From Candidatus Micrarchaeota archaeon (GTDB taxonomy: Archaea > Micrarchaeota > Micrarchaeia > Anstonellales > Bilamarchaeaceae), in contig JBFMCO010000068.1 of the NCBI GenBank assembly GCA_040754495.1, positions 1 through 17,203 on the forward strand: a DNA stretch of 17,203 bases. Reading direction: 5' to 3'. The notes under the pieces were generated by a model that saw only the letters and a program-made list of their open reading frames with translations, ran no database searches and was not told the origin of the DNA. Shown piece after piece: positions 8,731 to 17,203 of this stretch (positions within the stretch are counted from its first letter, which is position 1; each line of letters opens with the position of its first letter). The position numbers were made by a program, and so were the translations under genes.

Positions 8731-9222
8731 ATGCAAAAGATAACGCCGTTTCTGTGGTTCGACGACAAGGCCGAGGAGGCTGCGAGGTTCTACGTCTCGG
8801 TTTTCAAGAACTCGAAAATCCTGGACGTCGCACGCTACGACAAGGAAGGGGCCAAGGTGTCCGGAAGGCCCGCGGGCTCGGTGATGACCATATCGTTCCG
8901 CATCCTCGGGCAGGAGTTCGTCGCTTTGAACGGCGGGCCCATCTTCAAGTTCAACGAGTCTGTTTCCTTCGTCGTGAACTGCAAGACGCAGAAGGAAGTG
9001 GATTATTATTGGGAGACGCTCTCCAGGGGCGGGGACAGGTCGGCGCAGCAGTGCGGCTGGCTCAAGGACAGATACGGCTTGTCCTGGCAGGTAGTGCCGG
9101 ACATACTGGAGAAGCTCCTGCAGGACAAGGATGGGAGGAAATCGCAGAGGGTGATGGCTGCGATGCTCAAGATGAAGAAAATCGAAATCGAGGGCCTGAA
9201 GAAAGCGTACAGAGGGCAGTAG
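8731..9222 (+). CDS. VOC/PhnB-like protein (3-demethylubiquinone-9 3-methyltransferase-like family)
   Basis: MQKITPFLWFDDKAEEAARFY, ALNGGPIFKFNESVSFVVNC, CGWLKDRYGLSWQVVP and AMLKMKKI motifs. TTTTAATTTA at 8701-8710. Confidence 0.92.
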   Translation: MQKITPFLWFDDKAEEAARFYVSVFKNSKILDVARYDKEGAKVSGRPAGSVMTISFRILGQEFVALNGGPIFKFNESVSFVVNCKTQKEVDYYWETLSRGGDRSAQQCGWLKDRYGLSWQVVPDILEKLLQDKDGRKSQRVMAAMLKMKKIEIEGLKKAYRGQ

Positions 9223-10671: not shown

Positions 10672-10746
10672 GGACAGATTATTCAGGCAAGATTAAAATG
10701 GATTGACGCACCCGCGAGCGGAGCGAGCGAAATTCCACGTTTTTGG

Positions 10747-10767
10747 GCGCTTTTTACAAAAAAGCGC
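10747..10767. other. Perfect 9-bp inverted repeat at the island's left boundary
   Basis: GCGCTTTTT-ACA-AAAAAGCGC, directly abutting repeat copy 1. Confidence 0.6.
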
Positions 10768-10865
10768 AGGGCCATGACCGAGAATTCAAATCCCAGTTCG
10801 AGTCTCGTAAAATTCATGCAATATCATGCATTTTTCAGCAAGACATTGCAGTATCGAAATATAAA
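10768..10865 (+). repeat. ~98-bp imperfect direct repeat, copy 1 (palindrome pair + TATA)
   Basis: Aligns to 12698-12794 with 78/98 identities by hand. Identical blocks: AGGGCCATGACCG, GAATTCAAAT, TCTCGT, ATGCAATATCATGCAT, ATTGCA and AAATATAAA. Confidence 0.92.
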
Positions 10866-10886
10866 GCCGTTTGTTGCTCATTATGT

Positions 10887-11597
10887 ATGATGGCGTCAAG
10901 AATAAAGCTTCACAAATCTGAGGGGCTCACTGGAAGACACGACTTGGTGAGATACCTAGCTGGAGCGATACTTGAGATTAATGCGGATCATCCGGTTCGG
11001 GTAGGTATTGATGGTGCTGACGCATCTGGAAAGACGCATCTGGCTAATGACCTTGCAGTAGAACTCGGAAAAAGAGGGCGGCAGATAATTCGTGCCTCGA
11101 TAGACGGTTTTCACAATCCAAGGGGGATCAGGTACAGAAAAGGCCGGGATTCTCCTGAAGGGTATTATCTCGACTCTTTCGATAATCAAGCCATCATCGA
11201 CAATCTGTTAGCTCCTCTTGGCCCTAACGGAAATCGGTTGATAAGGACTGTGATATTTGATTTTAGAACAGATTCGGAAGTCGATGCGGTGGCGATACGT
11301 GCGACAAATAACTCAATCCTGGTAATGGAAGGGGTTTTCTTGTTTCGTCCCGAACTGGCCAGTCAATGGGATTTGAAGGTATTTTTGGACGTGGATTTTT
11401 CTACCTCTCTGAGCCGTGCTTTGAAACGAGATATATATTATCTTGGCTCAGAGGAGGGTATCAGACAGATGTACGAAAAGCGCTATATCCCCGGGCAGAA
11501 ATTATATTTCGCAGCATGCAATCCTAAAGAACAGGCGGACATCCTAGTAGACAATAACGATTTCGATAATCCAAAGATTACTCGATGCTCTGTGTGA
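10887..11597 (+). CDS. Uridine-kinase-like P-loop nucleoside kinase
   Basis: VGIDGADASGKT Walker A, RASIDGFHNP, SPEGYYLDSFD, EGVFLFRPEL and RYIPGQ. ATG 10887/10890 lies ~25 bp after the TATA of repeat copy 1; the 10743 extension runs through the repeat. Confidence 0.85.
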   Translation: MMASRIKLHKSEGLTGRHDLVRYLAGAILEINADHPVRVGIDGADASGKTHLANDLAVELGKRGRQIIRASIDGFHNPRGIRYRKGRDSPEGYYLDSFDNQAIIDNLLAPLGPNGNRLIRTVIFDFRTDSEVDAVAIRATNNSILVMEGVFLFRPELASQWDLKVFLDVDFSTSLSRALKRDIYYLGSEEGIRQMYEKRYIPGQKLYFAACNPKEQADILVDNNDFDNPKITRCSV

Positions 11598-11623
11598 CTA
11601 CACTTTGATTTCCCGTAGTCACA
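11593..11623. repeat. Inverted pair TGTGACTAC-N13-GTAGTCACA at the convergent kinase/Fic junction
   Basis: TGTGACTAC at 11593-11601 and GTAGTCACA at 11615-11623. Each arm contains the TGA stop of one of the two genes. Confidence 0.85.
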
Positions 11624-12563
11624 TCTTTTTCTTCAGGCTCTTCCGCAGGCGCCGATACTCTTTCAGCATGAGCTCGATCATCGGCCTTATATTCTGGCTA
11701 TTCTCATATTTCTGCAGCGCGGCATAATACTCTTTCCGGTTTTTCAATTCGATGTTAAGGGGCGGGAAATTATGCTTAAGCAAGATGTTTATCAGCAGAA
11801 GGCGCCCTACCCGCCCATTGCCGTCCTCGAAAGGATGGATATTCTCGAATTGGTTGTGCACCACTGCAGCTAGAACGAGCGGCGGGTATTTTTTCCGGTT
11901 CTTGCCGTACCAGATGACCAGTTCTTTTAAAAGAGAGGCGACTTGGCTTGATGGCGCCCCCTGATGTATTATATTTCCGAAACCATCAACAACCGCCACT
12001 TCCTTGCCGCGCGCTCTGAAGTTCCCTGCAAACGGTTTTGAGTTCTTGAATATGATTCGATGGAGTTCCTTTATCAGCCCTAGGGAGACATGATCTTTAG
12101 CCTTTCTAATGTAAGCAACCGCCTCGGCAACCCCATAGGTCTCGGATATCTCTTCCTTTGGTTTTTCCGGCCATTTGTTCTTCTCAAGGATATTGAGTAC
12201 CTCATGTCCAGTGACTGACGAACCTTCGATGGCATTGGTATCATAGGTGAATGCTTCGGTGAACTTCCGCCAGTCAGCTTCACTTAGATGGAGCAATTTT
12301 ATCTTGCCTTTGGCTTCGATGGTTCTGAGTTCTCCAAGTTCAGATGGAGATAAAACAGTCCTATAGGGGTCATGGATAAATTTTGCGCTCTGAAGCCTAG
12401 AACTGATCATCTGCTCGGCTTCCTTTTTCTTTGAATCCACCTGCGCTTGGGAGAGATCGGCACCCAGGTATACCCGGATTTTTTTGATTTTTCCGTCCTT
12501 CCGATAGGAATGGGCCAGATAGTACTGTGTTCTGCCGTCTTTCCTCCTTTTTTCGATGTACAC
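11619..12563 (-). CDS. Fic-domain protein (class II) with an N-terminal beta-sheet putative DNA-binding domain
   Basis: Intact catalytic motif HPFEDGNGRVGR and inhibitory (S/T)xxxE(G/N) motif TNAIEG. N-terminus MYIEKRRKDGRTQYYLAHSYRKDGKIKKIRVYLG. GTG start. Confidence 0.93.
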   Translation of the reverse strand: MYIEKRRKDGRTQYYLAHSYRKDGKIKKIRVYLGADLSQAQVDSKKKEAEQMISSRLQSAKFIHDPYRTVLSPSELGELRTIEAKGKIKLLHLSEADWRKFTEAFTYDTNAIEGSSVTGHEVLNILEKNKWPEKPKEEISETYGVAEAVAYIRKAKDHVSLGLIKELHRIIFKNSKPFAGNFRARGKEVAVVDGFGNIIHQGAPSSQVASLLKELVIWYGKNRKKYPPLVLAAVVHNQFENIHPFEDGNGRVGRLLLINILLKHNFPPLNIELKNRKEYYAALQKYENSQNIRPMIELMLKEYRRLRKSLKKKM

Positions 12564-12575
12564 AAATAGGTATTA

Positions 12576-12618
12576 TGTGACTACGTTTATTAATTTATTG
12601 ATTAGGTTGTGACTACGT
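12576..12618. promoter_or_regulatory. Fic promoter: TATA flanked by direct repeats TGTGACTACGT
   Basis: TGTGACTACGT at 12576-12586 and 12608-12618. Minus-strand TTAATAAA lies between them, 24-31 bp upstream of the GTG. Confidence 0.75.
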
Positions 12619-12697
12619 AATTTGGTTAGCCGTCGAAATCGGAATTGGTGAATAAAAGAAGGAAAGGGCCACGACCGGGACCACCCAGGAAGATTAT

Positions 12698-12794
12698 AGG
12701 GCCATGACCGTGAATTCAAATTCTGGTTCGACTCTCGTTAAACAATGCAATATCATGCATGTGTATGCAATATATTGCATAAGTTAAATATAAA
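12698..12794 (+). repeat. ~98-bp imperfect direct repeat, copy 2
   Basis: Lies 1930 bp after copy 1 and contains the perfect 18-bp palindrome TATGCAATATATTGCATA (12764-12781). A partial third copy AGGGCCACGACCG is at 12665-12677. Confidence 0.92.
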
Positions 12795-12827
12795 TCTTTT
12801 TTCAGTGTCGCACATGGTTAACAACAA

Positions 12828-14348
12828 TTATTCGTTGTTGTGCTCATACCCAAGCCTTCCCCATCTTTTCTTGAGCTTATCAAGGACCTCGGGGTTTCTG
12901 ATTAGACCGTCGTAAATTTCCTTGAATTCCTGGAGTGTTTTTGCAGACTCCAATGCGATAAGCACGGCGCATGCCTTGAATATATGGTAAACTACACCGG
13001 CAAGCTTACCTTGAGACCTTGCAAAGCGATATGCAGGACTAGAAGAGTTAATTGCCAATGCCTTGCGTTTCTTATCATAGGTTGCCTCAGGTTCAAGAAT
13101 TCCAAGTTCGCTTATCTCTATTTTCAGATCGCCCGCTGATAAAAGCTTAAATAGGCCGGGTGTTGAGACTTCCGTACTTTCTTTTTTCCGTGTTTGCTCT
13201 TCGTGCCTCGGGCTTGGCAGATTATTTTCTTTAATTGGCCTTTGCTCGGTCCTTATCGACAAAGATGTCTTCGTTGCAGCAACGGCCAGCGCCTCCGATA
13301 TGGCAGATGGTATGACCTTCTTTTCCACGGTATCTCTTGCTTTCTCGTATTTTTCGTATTCCAGATCGGAAAGTCTATTCAATTCTTTCTTGAGCCAGTT
13401 CATAAAAGAGATATACTTTGGGTGTGTCACGATAAATCCAGCCCGGTTTGTTTGGAGAGCATCATTAAGCCCATTGACGTTTATGTCGGCGTATATCTTT
13501 CGGTTAAACTGTCGTGCATGGTTCAAATTGGCAAAGTTGACAATGGTATGAGGACTGTCCAAATTAACCAACCTTTCAAATACCCTGATGAAAACCCCGA
13601 ACTCCCCTCCCTTTTCGCTATGCTTGAAGATGACCGTGCCATTTATGTCCCCTAAATCCGGAATGTTACCTCGTATCAGGTGCACATTGCCATGGATGAC
13701 GTCCTTAGAGGCAAGTGTAATTGGATGTCCTAGGCCCATGCCGCTTAGGATGATTTGAAAGTCCTTTGTTAGGGGCATTGTTTGCATCAAATGCCGCTTT
13801 ATTTTGATCGCATCGATTTTTTCCTTAAGATTCCGAAGCGTGATCTTTGTACCGCTTCCTTTGCGCTCTGTAAGTTCCGTAATCACGGAGAGCTCGAACG
13901 TATCTATGAATTCTTCTCTTTCGAATTCTTCAAAATCAAACGAGGCCCTAGAGAGTTTTCCGGCTCGCCATGTTTCTATGTCGAAAGATTTGCATATCTG
14001 GTATAACGAGAGTTTTCCAATACCGAACTTGCCAATTATGTACCTCTTAACTCCCTTGAACGATCTCACTGGAACATCGACTTTGCCAGTGTGCGAGATA
14101 TAAAAGAACTTTACCAAGCCATCGCGATCCATCCCCTCTCCATCATCCTCGATTGTGATCTGGATGTCCTGGACATCGAGCTTAACTGTTGTCGCAAGCG
14201 CGTCGCGTGAGTTTGCCACTAGTTCGTCAAAGATGATAAGGGGGTTTGGGTAGAATGTGGTGCTCAGCTGTTTTATGATTCTAGTTCCGACCCTGACTTT
14301 GTTGCCAGAAGAGGCAGGAATCACACTAATCGATTCGTCCGCTTGCAT
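12828..14348 (-). CDS. GHKL (HSP90/MutL/prokaryotic MORC-like) ATPase
   Basis: Bergerat motifs FDELVANSRDA, IEDDGEGM, IGKFGIGKLS and GTKITL. An S5-like middle region (GVFIRVFERLV), a helical linker and a C-terminal INSSSPAY region follow. Confidence 0.88.
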   Translation of the reverse strand: MQADESISVIPASSGNKVRVGTRIIKQLSTTFYPNPLIIFDELVANSRDALATTVKLDVQDIQITIEDDGEGMDRDGLVKFFYISHTGKVDVPVRSFKGVKRYIIGKFGIGKLSLYQICKSFDIETWRAGKLSRASFDFEEFEREEFIDTFELSVITELTERKGSGTKITLRNLKEKIDAIKIKRHLMQTMPLTKDFQIILSGMGLGHPITLASKDVIHGNVHLIRGNIPDLGDINGTVIFKHSEKGGEFGVFIRVFERLVNLDSPHTIVNFANLNHARQFNRKIYADINVNGLNDALQTNRAGFIVTHPKYISFMNWLKKELNRLSDLEYEKYEKARDTVEKKVIPSAISEALAVAATKTSLSIRTEQRPIKENNLPSPRHEEQTRKKESTEVSTPGLFKLLSAGDLKIEISELGILEPEATYDKKRKALAINSSSPAYRFARSQGKLAGVVYHIFKACAVLIALESAKTLQEFKEIYDGLIRNPEVLDKLKKRWGRLGYEHNNE

Positions 14349-14638: not shown

Positions 14639-15709
14639 TTAAACTTTTCGGTTCAGCAGTTCCAAAAGCCACTGCCCAACCCCCTTCGCTACGAAGGGAG
14701 GGACGGCGTTCCCAACCTGTGTATACTGAGGACAACTGACCACCCTTTGCTTCCCGCCAGTTGTTCTCGGCCCTAAGAATACGTAGGAGTCGCTAAAGGA
14801 TTGCAACCGCGCCATTTCGCGGACAGTCAATATCCGAGGCAGTGAATAGTGCACATAATCATCGGGCAACGTCGTGACTGTTGGCGCGGGTTCGGATTCG
14901 GCCAGGCGGTAGAGATAACGCTTCTTTGTATCCCCTCCGTTAGGCAGGTTTCTTAGACTCCAGCCCGGGGCAAGACTGGAAAATCTTTTGGCGACCCTTT
15001 TTGAATGCATTGCAGTCGTATGGTTCGATAGCGATTTCATAAGCCCCCTCATGGTTGTCTGATACACTGATCGAGGCGGCAACGCATATTTCGATGAGGA
15101 TTCTCCTGATCTCAGGAATGACAAATCTCCGATAGCTTCAGCCACCGACACCCTTCGCATTTGTTCTTGTTTGAAACTATTGATATCGACGTCACGAAGT
15201 TTTGATCCAAGGATAAAGACCCTCTCCCTTCTCTGTGGGACGCCAAAGTCAGTTGCATTAATCACCCGCCAGGAAACTTTGTAGCCCGCACCTTCCAAAC
15301 TTTCAGTTATGGCACGCAGGAACCACCCCTTTTTCATAGTAAGGATTCCGCGGACATTTTCAATGAGGACAAAAGTGGGACGAACTTTTCTTGCAAGCCG
15401 GACAACCTCCTTGAAAAGATAGTTGCGGCGGTCTTTTTGTTTTCTTTGACCTGCATGAGAGAATCCCTGGCAGGGAAGCCCAGCAAAGAGAAGATGAACC
15501 TTCCCCCCAGCTGCGTCCAGTATTTCCTCAGCTGCGAGTTTGCGGACGTCCTTTTCAATCAGGATAGTCTCGGGGTGGTTTGCCTTGTAAGTCAAGGCAG
15601 CGTGGGGGTTGATTTCATTTGCAACTTTAACGACAAATCCAGCCTGTTTCAGGCCGTCACTTGCCCCCCCGGCACCCGCAAAAATGTCAACTGCAACTAA
15701 CTCTTCCAT
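14639..15709 (-). CDS. DNA (cytosine-5)-methyltransferase
   Basis: Motif I DIFAGAGG, IV GLPCQGFS, VI ENVRG, VIII QRRERVFI, IX RILTVREMARLQSF and X QVGNAVPP. Confidence 0.97.
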   Translation of the reverse strand: MEELVAVDIFAGAGGASDGLKQAGFVVKVANEINPHAALTYKANHPETILIEKDVRKLAAEEILDAAGGKVHLLFAGLPCQGFSHAGQRKQKDRRNYLFKEVVRLARKVRPTFVLIENVRGILTMKKGWFLRAITESLEGAGYKVSWRVINATDFGVPQRRERVFILGSKLRDVDINSFKQEQMRRVSVAEAIGDLSFLRSGESSSKYALPPRSVYQTTMRGLMKSLSNHTTAMHSKRVAKRFSSLAPGWSLRNLPNGGDTKKRYLYRLAESEPAPTVTTLPDDYVHYSLPRILTVREMARLQSFSDSYVFLGPRTTGGKQRVVSCPQYTQVGNAVPPFVAKGVGQWLLELLNRKV

Positions 15710-15868: not shown

Positions 15869-15908
15869 ATATTACATACTATAACATAATATTACAAAAG
15901 ATAATATT
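15869..15908. promoter_or_regulatory. Putative operator/promoter of the RHH-MTase operon
   Basis: ATATTACA direct repeats at 15869-15876 and 15889-15896 (20-bp period) flank a TATA-like TTATAG on the minus strand. ATAATATT also occurs twice. Confidence 0.55.
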
Positions 15909-16321
15909 TAATTATATGCATTCAACGCACGTTTAATCTTTTTTATACATCGAGTCAAGTTCTTTGTAACCTCGTGTTCCCAGAGGCGAAGTATCGTCCA
16001 GCCCTTCTTCCTAAGAAGCGCCCTCTGCCTTTTATCTCGGCGCATGTTTTGTTCAATCTTCCTCCGCCAGAATGAATTCAGTTTGGCCTTCCTTTTTGCA
16101 TAATCCCAGCCGTGCCAAAAGTCGCCGTCTACGAAGACAAGTATTTTCCTTCCATCTGATGAAACCAAAAAGTCGGGATTGCCCATGCCTCGGGGGTGTT
16201 TCCGGTAGGGGATTTTGGATTTACGTAAAGCCTTGGCAAGCAGAAGCTCGATCTTCGTATTCTTTCCTCGTATTCTGGACATGACCCAGCTTCTTTTTTC
16301 TTTACTGAAGACATCAGCCAT
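15908..16321 (-). CDS. vsr: Very short patch repair endonuclease
   Basis: MADVFSKEKRSWVMSRIRGKNTKIE, PDF, FVDGDFWHG, FWRRKIEQNMRRD and GWTILRLWEHEV. ATG 16321 follows GGGGTG; the ORF track starts at TTG 16336. Confidence 0.95.
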   Translation of the reverse strand: MADVFSKEKRSWVMSRIRGKNTKIELLLAKALRKSKIPYRKHPRGMGNPDFLVSSDGRKILVFVDGDFWHGWDYAKRKAKLNSFWRRKIEQNMRRDKRQRALLRKKGWTILRLWEHEVTKNLTRCIKKIKRALNAYN

Positions 16322-16475
16322 TACAGCACCCCGCAATTATGCCATATTTGAAATACACGCGGCAAACTTCTTTTAAGAAACGTATTAGTTGTTGACTTTT
16401 TCGTGCAATATGTTGTATAAATGAATAAATCGTCTTGAGCTAATTGTATACACCATCTCAAAATGGGGTGGTGAA

Positions 16476-16781
16476 TTGAATCTCAAGAGTATAACTATGC
16501 TCCTCCTTGTCGGAGGAATGGCTTTTGCCGAGTTCAGCATACCATCGGACCAGCCGATCTGCAACCTGTACGGCCTGCTTAAGACATTCGGTACGGTCGT
16601 AGGTATCATCGTAGCGGCCTACTCGGGCTTCATGCTGGCAAGCGTTACGGACCTTAAGGAGAGGAACGATGCCAAGGCCCTCCTGGGAGGCGTGGCTGTA
16701 GGTCTAATCGTAATCTGGATCGCTCCTTTGGTCATAACGAACCTGGTAGGAGCTGAGAGCGTCTGCGGGTGGACCTCCTGA
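16476..16781 (+). CDS. VirB2/TrbC-like pilin with signal peptide
   Basis: Signal peptide ending AFA, then two TM helices separated by a charged loop (SVTDLKERNDAKALL). Cys near both ends of the mature chain. SD GGGGTGGTGA. Confidence 0.7.
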   Translation: MNLKSITMLLLVGGMAFAEFSIPSDQPICNLYGLLKTFGTVVGIIVAAYSGFMLASVTDLKERNDAKALLGGVAVGLIVIWIAPLVITNLVGAESVCGWTS

Positions 16782-17078: not shown

Positions 17079-17203
17079 TGGACTGCACCCCTAAAAGTGG
17101 ACAATTAGAAAAGACTCATCCCACTATTGAAAAGGGGTGCAAAAATGAAATTGAAGCGCAGGTTCACGAGAGAATTCAAGCTGGCAGTAGTACGGGAGCT
17201 GCA
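17079..17203 (+). mobile_element. IS3-family insertion sequence, left end (IRL + start of orfA)
   Basis: The terminus TGGACTGCACCCCTAAAAGTGGACA (17079-17103) begins with TG and resembles IS3-family IRs. It is followed by an IS3-type OrfA. Confidence 0.8.
17145..17203 (+). CDS. IS3-family transposase OrfA, N-terminal HTH, 3'-truncated by window edge
   Basis: MKLKRRFTREFKLAVVREL matches the OrfA RRx(F/Y)(T/S)xEFKxxAV pattern. SD AGGGGTG upstream. Confidence 0.85.
   Translation, partial: MKLKRRFTREFKLAVVREL

Follow-up and report, generated by a model that had tools for sequence, protein, structure and literature searches.

Islands accreting at RNA genes

Tandem accretion of genomic islands at tRNA and tmRNA genes, together with cis-mobilizable elements (CIMEs), has been described for ICESt1/ICESt3-CIME of Streptococcus thermophilus in a review of integrative and mobilizable elements (PMC5704250). 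The Dehalococcoides ssrA islands are tandem, low in guanine-plus-cytosine content (GC), and located downstream of a single-copy RNA gene; they are bordered by ~20-bp direct repeats of the RNA-gene 3′ end with extra conserved bases beside them, and some are without an integration module (PMC3146451). For the archaeal non-partitioning tyrosine integrases acting at tRNA genes, tandem integration and integrase-less remnants are also known, and the 2021 review of archaeal tyrosine recombinases mentions neither DPANN nor Micrarchaeota (PMC8371274). Here, a 17,203-nt stretch of DNA—hereafter the window, which is the whole of contig C68 in an 80%-complete, 1.63-Mb, 72-contig metagenome-assembled genome (MAG) from the Micrarchaeota (DPANN)—is described in which two 98-bp direct repeats bracket a kinase gene and a Fic-domain gene. 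Everything to the right of position 10768 is very probably a composite island, formed as one tyrosine-integrase element after another inserted site-specifically at the 3′ end of a tRNA-His gene.

The initial annotation of this DNA knew of no named system with such a layout, a statement that does not hold, the layout being that of tandem accretion at a tRNA gene with CIME-like integrase-less remnants. Common to ICESt1/ICESt3-CIME and this locus are integration at an RNA-gene 3′ end, direct repeats of that end at the island borders, and an older element which would have decayed to an integrase-less segment, with a new element integrated beside it. Unlike in the streptococcal case, the host is an archaeon (DPANN), no conjugation module was recognised, and the junction bears a conserved double-palindrome promoter module; unlike CIMEs, moreover, the islet in the window keeps one arm type and may not be cis-mobilizable. 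The Dehalococcoides islands resemble the locus in being tandem and of low GC, and in having repeat borders with adjoining conserved bases, but they involve a serine recombinase, a tmRNA target, and dehalogenase cargo, rather than a Xer-like tyrosine recombinase with a C-terminal zinc ribbon, tRNA-His, and defence genes. As in archaeal non-partitioning elements, the integrase gene is intact beside the tRNA, and its signature is the canonical HxxR—neither the KxxR of the SSV1 type nor the YxxR of the pNOB8 type. The earlier idea of an SSV-type att site within coding sequence fails, since the 401-aa integrase is unsplit, the att site lies ~155 nt upstream of its start, and the repeat is non-coding; what is shared with SSV1-type elements is a tRNA-derived att site in an archaeon.

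The comparison set consisted of 60 related genomes (labelled G0xx, with their fetched loci labelled L0xx). Genes in the window were called with Pfam and PADLOC and RNAs were scanned for with ARAGORN and Rfam; arm matches were scored against 500 shuffles, and the module alignment comprised 11 sites from 8 genomes. Feature coordinates are collected in the table.

The repeats begin with the 3′ end of tRNA-His

The two copies of the repeat (10768-10865 and 12698-12794) are identical at 78 of 98 positions in a global alignment with one 1-nt gap, as had been reported, and a repeat finder recovered the same pair as two adjoining families (45 nt at 87% and 57 nt at 75%). Over the 1.63-Mb assembly, only these two full copies were found, with copy 2 matching copy 1 at E=8e-18, and a partial copy was confirmed at 12665-12683 (AGGGCCACGACCGGGACCA). 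The first 17 nt of the repeat, GGGCCATGACCG[A/T]GAAT, are the reverse complement of the tRNA-His 3′ end, and the comparison of the 5′ block with tRNA ends that the initial annotation had recommended gave a match. The core of copy 1, a GAGAAT variant, agrees with G006 at 18 of 18 positions when the adjoining A (10768) is counted, and that of copy 2 agrees with the tRNA-His of G011, G029, and G033 at 17 of 17; the MAG's own tRNA-His, on contig C44, shows one or two base differences from the cores. In the fetched loci inspected from G011, G029, G033, and G036, AGGGCCATGACCGTGAAT runs on into a complete antisense tRNA-His, and alignment showed both window copies to share the tRNA-His end and to diverge from the tRNA exactly after GAAT. 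The stretch from 12664 to 12715, containing the partial copy, a spacer, and the copy 2 core, shares 90% identity with the G011 tRNA-His trailer (E=4.8e-13). Both 17-nt cores are thus border direct repeats of a tRNA 3′ end, as in tyrosine-integrase genomic islands at tRNA genes.

Block-wise conservation of the repeat had been described, and was observed for the core (16/17), for dyad 1 (ATGCAATATCATGCAT, 16/16), and for the TATA box, which is identical; dyad 2, however, is a perfect palindrome in copy 2 only (ATGCAATATATTGCAT) and degenerate in copy 1 (CAGCAAGACATTGCAG), so that the pattern had been slightly overstated. The words formerly likened to a tRNA T-loop (TTCAAATC, GTTCGAGTC) do not belong to the tRNA match but lie beyond it, where they make up one of the two inverted arms flanking the core; no T-arm forms from them. 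The proposed peptide reading (the GHDREF... frame) reflects conserved DNA rather than coding: its 13 codons are closed by TAG and TAA in copy 2, and in copy 1, the frame simply continues into the kinase gene, the start of which (10887) is supported by a homologue in G013.

An empty site, an integrase, and a complete element

In G006, the site is empty, with ~450 nt between the HIT gene and the genes that in the MAG lie upstream of its own tRNA-His on C44. The order on a single G006 contig is HIT, a small open reading frame (ORF), CGCGAGCGGAGCGAGCG, a partial tRNA end, a spacer, an antisense tRNA-His, and a gene orthologous (77.5%) to the 294-aa gene found upstream of tRNA-His on C44. This upstream gene adjoins tRNA-His in nearly all genomes of the genus examined, and the downstream side differs in almost each. 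Because of the empty-site synteny and the conserved upstream gene, C68 and C44 are read as the two sides of one locus, with all DNA right of 10768 inserted. Furthermore, GC falls from ~0.60 to ~0.45 around 10.6-10.8 kb and does not rise again before the contig ends, core genes—encoding a 3-demethylubiquinone methyltransferase-family protein, HIT, and a lipoprotein-like ORF—being located to the left of the break; a synteny break combined with a GC shift is characteristic of an island.

On C44, tRNA-His is followed by TTATATTCAAGTTCGAGTCCCGGGC, a dyad (ACATGCAACATCTTGCATG), and then the intact gene for the 401-aa tyrosine recombinase. The protein keeps R170, K196, H268xxR271, and Y303 of the canonical R..K..HxxR..Y signature and contains a C-terminal CxxC...CxxC ribbon; its nearest solved relatives are XerA and XerD, with XerA (4a8e) being the nearest structure. 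An integrase of matching specificity adjoins its target tRNA in the same genome, as in islands, on C44 and outside the window. The MAG is assigned to Candidatus Micrarchaeota/Micrarchaeia by publicly recorded relatives of this integrase. Within metagenome and genome collections, relatives of this integrase were found at no more than 57% identity and no episomal attP form was found; a tRNA was called within 600 nt upstream of the integrase gene in 9 of 64 such relatives.

A complete element is present in G034 on one 682-kb contig, where 17-nt direct repeats (L050 1104-1120 and 9226-9242) enclose 8.1 kb containing the integrase at the tRNA end and the double-dyad module at the far end. Its cargo comprises genes for a MarR-like protein, a nucleotidyltransferase, an ABC transporter, and a CARDB protein, and its GC is 0.39-0.49 inside and 0.53-0.64 outside. 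We infer that the layout of this element is also that of the window.

Element arms and a double-dyad module

Tyrosine recombinases require inverted sites flanking a short core. The arm of copy 1 matches C44:13794-13853 in inverted orientation at 10 of 10 positions, a score reached by 0 of the 500 shuffles; read in the tRNA sense, the copy 1 arm is …GACTCGAAC TGGGAT TTGAAT-core, and the C44 arm after tRNA-His is core-…ATTCAA GTTCGAGTC. The two ends of the G034 element have a different arm sequence that likewise forms an inverted pair (11/12; reached by 4/500 shuffles). Such inverted arms are probably the binding sites of the integrase, a prediction from sequence. The possibility of the integrase-side arm being a fragment of another tRNA of the same genome was also considered, and no match above chance was obtained.

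The best-conserved part of the module is ATGCAAnATCATGCAT, 4-5 nt, TGCAATATATTGCAT, ~8 nt, and TTTAAA. The tRNA-His core heads 6 of the 11 aligned sites, the remaining sites having other upstream sequences, and the module was not found in order-level relatives outside the genus among the genomes compared. A single dyad of the same type is located just upstream of the integrase genes, and a subgroup of distant integrase relatives has a TGCAACACGATGCA dyad. The dyads are probably operators for an element-encoded winged-helix regulator, and would in the circular form control both divergent promoters; alternatively, they may be arm-type integrase or excisionase sites.

Variable cargo, an expectation of the initial annotation, was indeed observed, with relatives bearing the module at the same chromosomal site beside other genes: a hydrolase and Doc in G036, a HIT-like gene in G035, a winged helix-turn-helix regulator in G034, and, in G017, Fic unaccompanied by the kinase. 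The first gene past the module encodes the kinase in the window, the hydrolase in G036, the HIT-like protein in G035 (contig C80), a 338-aa protein in G024, and a 35-aa membrane peptide on C7 of the MAG; in G034, the nearest gene on the module strand is that of the regulator, ~130 nt away. At copy 2, in G017, at G035:C72, and at G026:C11, there is no downstream gene, and the promoter-like TATA box points at the 3′ end of a convergent gene.

The module on C7 (571-630, − strand) is a third double-dyad/TATA module of the MAG, without a core; it is situated at a low-GC contig start, is followed by the membrane peptide ORF, and may mark the end of another element. In addition, an ATG ~26 nt past the copy 2 TATA box opens a short ORF (12814-12915, + strand) antisense to the 3′ end of the HATPase gene; were the copy 2 promoter active, an antisense RNA to this restriction-like gene would result.

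A proposed order of events

Each 98-bp repeat would be the distal, attR-type junction of one integration event, composed of the 17-nt core identical to the tRNA-His 3′ end (antisense on the window + strand), an element arm matching, in inverted orientation, the arm that separates tRNA-His from the integrase gene, two 16-bp TGCA-N6-TGCA palindromes like the dyad upstream of the integrase gene, and a TATA box aimed into the element that would transcribe whichever gene sits at that end. The initial annotation had viewed the repeat as a tRNA-derived recombination scar fused to a promoter-like unit, a view that is largely borne out.

Copy 1 is read as the outer edge of the island because it abuts the native tRNA trailer hairpin; here, the old tRNA-His end would have stayed joined to its trailer. 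The kinase and Fic segment would be an older, integrase-less islet. On one contig of G017, the same core genes are followed by the module and then Fic, and in G029, Fic and its GTGACTAC-bearing promoter lie directly beside an intact tRNA-His, which would correspond to the state before the newer insertion; these arrangements argue for Fic being the older resident. The segment encoding the HATPase, Dcm, Vsr, and pilin-like proteins would have entered later, between the islet and the tRNA, creating copy 2. The far side of this locus would be represented by the tRNA-His, integrase, and further defence genes (STAND-like ATPase, AbiU/AIPR) on C44. A related element in G024 contains the module, then a plus-strand gene, and then the same pilin-like region, suggesting that the restriction-modification cassette displaced a gene once served by the copy 2 promoter. 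The older islet probably entered at a pseudo-att site and not at the tRNA itself, given that the Fic islet has the partial copy on its right.

Fic orthologues at the same site in G017 and G029 show 84-86% protein identity. At the DNA level, Fic is 81% identical to its G017 orthologue and the flanking core genes are 69-76% identical; this divergence of Fic, broadly similar to that of the core genes, fits an old islet inherited for the most part vertically better than a recently moving cassette. Between the repeat copies there are only the kinase and Fic genes and no genes for integration or transfer, as in CIMEs. These two genes were rejected as a fixed pair, the kinase being missing from the Fic islets of G017, G035, and G026 and its G013 homologue lying beside a RelE-like gene.

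Several observations weigh against the composite-island reading. The window itself holds no integrase, tRNA, or integrase-side arm, and the link between C68 and C44 is one of synteny in relatives: the gap between the contigs is not closed, no sequence overlap between their ends was found, and C68 ends in a multi-copy repeat. The copy 2 arm matches the C44 arm at just 8 of 9 positions, a score equalled by 65 of the 500 shuffles. A regulator like the G034 winged-helix protein was not found in the assembled genome, where the best match had 28% identity (E=1e-3). Finally, because the partial copy is found right of the Fic islet, the older islet would have had to enter at a pseudo-att site, and the history reconstructed here is tentative.

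Alternative explanations

Integrons combine an IntI integrase and attI with one Pc promoter, their promoterless cassettes being terminated by folded attC sites; at this locus, integration targets a tRNA end, every junction carries a TATA box of its own, and IntI4 is a weak structural relative of the integrase (2.2e-6) ranking behind the Xer proteins, so that the locus is not an integron. In an active cassette system, an integrase working in trans would capture and excise integrase-less units singly, each unit being an att core with a portable regulated promoter; tRNA-His would then be a capture platform resembling an integron or CIME array, and the 1930-bp kinase and Fic unit could leave as a circle, as was initially suggested. 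Integrase-less islets with a tRNA-His end copy, the arm/dyad/TATA module, and differing cargo do exist in the window, G036 (~1.5 kb), G021 (~1.4 kb), and G035:C80 (~2.1 kb), a cognate integrase is present in the same genome, and movement of bacterial CIMEs by accretion is documented (PMC5704250). Nevertheless, such a system seems unlikely here: both window repeats are attR-like junctions whose arms lie to the same side of the core; proximally, the islet shows a partial copy but no clear integrase-side arm; the divergence of Fic, close to that of the flanking core genes, suggests an old resident rather than recent movement; and the promoter, which faces the 3′ end of a convergent gene at four sites, is not a dedicated cassette promoter. 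Excision of a 1930-bp circle is less likely for the same reasons of junction type and Fic divergence. The wider proposition that tRNA-His is a gene-capture platform of the genus, at which a resident Xer-like integrase inserts, stacks, and perhaps exchanges in trans short integrase-less units, each equipped with an att core, an integrase-binding arm, and a common operator-controlled promoter, is likewise considered improbable; if true, it would place toxin and defence genes under one common regulator and provide an archaeal analogue of an integron or CIME array.

A purely local promoter duplication unconnected with recombination would agree with the genome containing only two full copies and with the dyad/TATA part being the most conserved stretch. 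Each copy, however, begins exactly at the tRNA-His 3′ end, and relatives have single copies at island ends beside tRNA-His; because the two cores match different tRNA-His variants and the left flanks are two different native tRNA-His trailers, a single local duplication is highly improbable. The view that the 5′ block is a functional small RNA or tRNA-like gene (a split-tRNA half or minihelix) instead of a recombination site can be credited with hardly any likelihood, even though tRNAs of the genus have long introns, the trailer hairpin also precedes 3′ exons, and minihelix-like units follow tRNA-His in many relatives. Indeed, ARAGORN detected no tRNA and Rfam no family in the window, the 17 nt of tRNA origin have an antisense orientation relative to the promoter and gene that follow, and the 5′ block allows no acceptor or T-arm pairing; being upstream of the TATA box, this block also falls outside the predicted transcript.

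Cargo genes and other features of the locus

Coordinates of features in the window (contig C68) and, where a contig or locus label is given, elsewhere
Feature	Position	Strand	Evidence and remarks
Trailer element, native chromosomal flank, genus-wide	10712..10767	.	CGCGAGCGGAGCGAGCG and hairpin GCGCTTTTT-ACA-AAAAAGCGC (10747-10767)
att core, copy 1	10769..10785	-	GGGCCATGACCGAGAAT; reverse complement of last 17 nt of tRNA-His
Element arm, copy 1	10786..10815	+	holds AGTTCGAGTC (10795-10804); inverted partner of integrase-side arm on C44
Dyads, copy 1, operator-like	10816..10851	.	10816-10831 and, degenerate, 10836-10851
TATA-like box, copy 1	10857..10866	+	AAATATAAAG; ~25 nt ahead of kinase ATG at 10887; aligns with TTTAAA boxes of module family
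PRK/uridine-kinase-like P-loop kinase, cargo	10887..11597	+	Pfam PF00485, 2.6e-8; start backed by G013 homologue
Fic-domain protein, SoFic-like defence/toxin candidate; cargo of putative older islet	11619..12563	-	PF02661, 2.5e-19; PADLOC SoFic, 1.9e-35
Partial tRNA-His end copy (12665-12683) and 14-nt spacer	12665..12697	-	homologous to tRNA-His trailer of G006, G011, G033
att core, copy 2	12699..12715	-	GGGCCATGACCGTGAAT; reverse complement of last 17 nt of tRNA-His
Arm, dyads (12745-12760, 12765-12780), TATA (12786-12795), copy 2	12716..12795	+	repeat finder, alignments
Restriction-modification-type cargo of putative newer segment	12828..16336	-	Pfam; PADLOC REase_II, MTase_II, Vsr
HATPase_c_3/REase-like	12828-14348	-	Pfam; PADLOC type II restriction-modification component
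Dcm methylase	14639-15709	-	Pfam; PADLOC type II restriction-modification component
Vsr	15908-16336	-	Pfam; PADLOC type II restriction-modification component
TrbC/VirB2-like small membrane (pilin-like) protein	16476..16781	+	PF04956, 2e-4, under curated cut-off; 76% nucleotide match in G024 element
Start of multi-copy IS-like repeat ending the contig	17079..17203	+	100% identical copies at ends of C1, C2, C13, C58, C59
tRNA-His, own genome	C44:13722-13793
Integrase, own genome	C44:13950-15155		Pfam Phage_integrase, 1.9e-19; starts ~155 nt after tRNA-His
tRNA-His, G034	ends L050:1120
Integrase, G034, at tRNA end of element	L050:1268-2455		57% identical to C44 integrase
ArsR-type winged-helix gene, G034	L050:8707-9003	-	98 aa
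Double-dyad module, G034, at far end of element	L050 ~9130-9200
Trailer element, own genome	C52:5511-5633, C14:44063-44160, C22:18773-18805, C28:24718-24735
Trailer element, own genome, further copies	C28:33563-33581, C50:30747-30763, C56:56590-56608

A GTGACTAC/GTAGTCAC motif brackets the Fic gene (11598-11632 and 12575-12620): it occurs as an inverted pair where the kinase and Fic genes end, between their stop codons, and the promoter region of Fic contains two direct copies (TGTGACTACGT). The motif also accompanies the Fic homologues of G027, G029, G035, and G026, and may be an operator for Fic autoregulation. On C44, beside tRNA-His, a second defence cluster (13950-18361) encodes, in addition to the integrase, an AIPR/AbiU protein and a STAND/KAP-like ATPase that has a winged-helix domain at its C-terminus; the cluster has 36-49% GC and extends up to the end of the contig.

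The window ends in a 125-nt repeat, copies of which are present at both ends of C2. An ORF from 17145, reading MKLKRRFTREFKLAVVREL, resembles the N-terminus of an insertion sequence (IS) transposase, OrfA of the IS3 family; a multi-copy IS probably broke the assembly at the C68 end.

tRNA trailers and tRNA genes of the genus

The trailer element to the left of copy 1, where the hairpin element spans 10739-10767, is ~30-55 nt long and consists of …GTTTTTGG and a hairpin of the form GCGCyTTTT-nnn-AAAArGCGC. Several such elements occur per genome throughout the genus, at 90-97% identity, with the hairpin side turned towards the tRNA 3′ end. In the MAG, the element adjoins the 3′ ends of tRNA-Gly (C22) and of an intron-bearing tRNA (C14), and it lies next to tRNA-His in G006, G033, and G036. 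It is also found within tRNA introns just before the 3′ exon, in tRNA-Thr on C52 and in the tRNA on C14, the 3′ exon of the latter having one element on each side in inverted orientation. The element could be a terminator, a processing signal, or part of a mobile intron.

Within the 1.63 Mb, ARAGORN detected 7 tRNAs, all intron-less, and the Rfam tRNA model detected 15, several of the detected tRNAs having introns of 40-200 nt; most tRNA genes of the genus seem to be interrupted and standard tRNA counts too low. In many genomes of the genus (L020, L021, L032, L034, L039, L046, and L048), one to three tandem 85-94-nt units are located 3′ of tRNA-His. At its end, each unit has a copy of the acceptor 3′ strand (..CGTGGCCC); ahead of this copy are a covarying T-arm-like hairpin and a GGGrCrC stretch able to pair with the acceptor copy in a minihelix-like fold. 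A 5′ stem also covaries (TTTTCC/GGAAAA, TAAGTC/GACTTA, TAAGCC/GGCTTA). A decayed trace of such a unit is seen at 12665-12683 of the window.

Implications

With the island reading, the GC break of the contig is explained and C68 becomes connected with C44. As mechanisms, tRNA-targeted islands and tandem accretion are textbook matter, and the value of the analysis lies in annotation and in documenting these elements in a poorly studied lineage rather than in any new principle. Testable parts are supplied in the form of the 17-nt core, the inverted arms, and the conserved double-palindrome promoter module that would also guard the integrase gene. Overall, the comparative picture is one of how tiny host-dependent archaea such as Micrarchaeota gain defence and toxin genes, with one tRNA gene serving as the landing pad for a family of Xer-like integrase elements.

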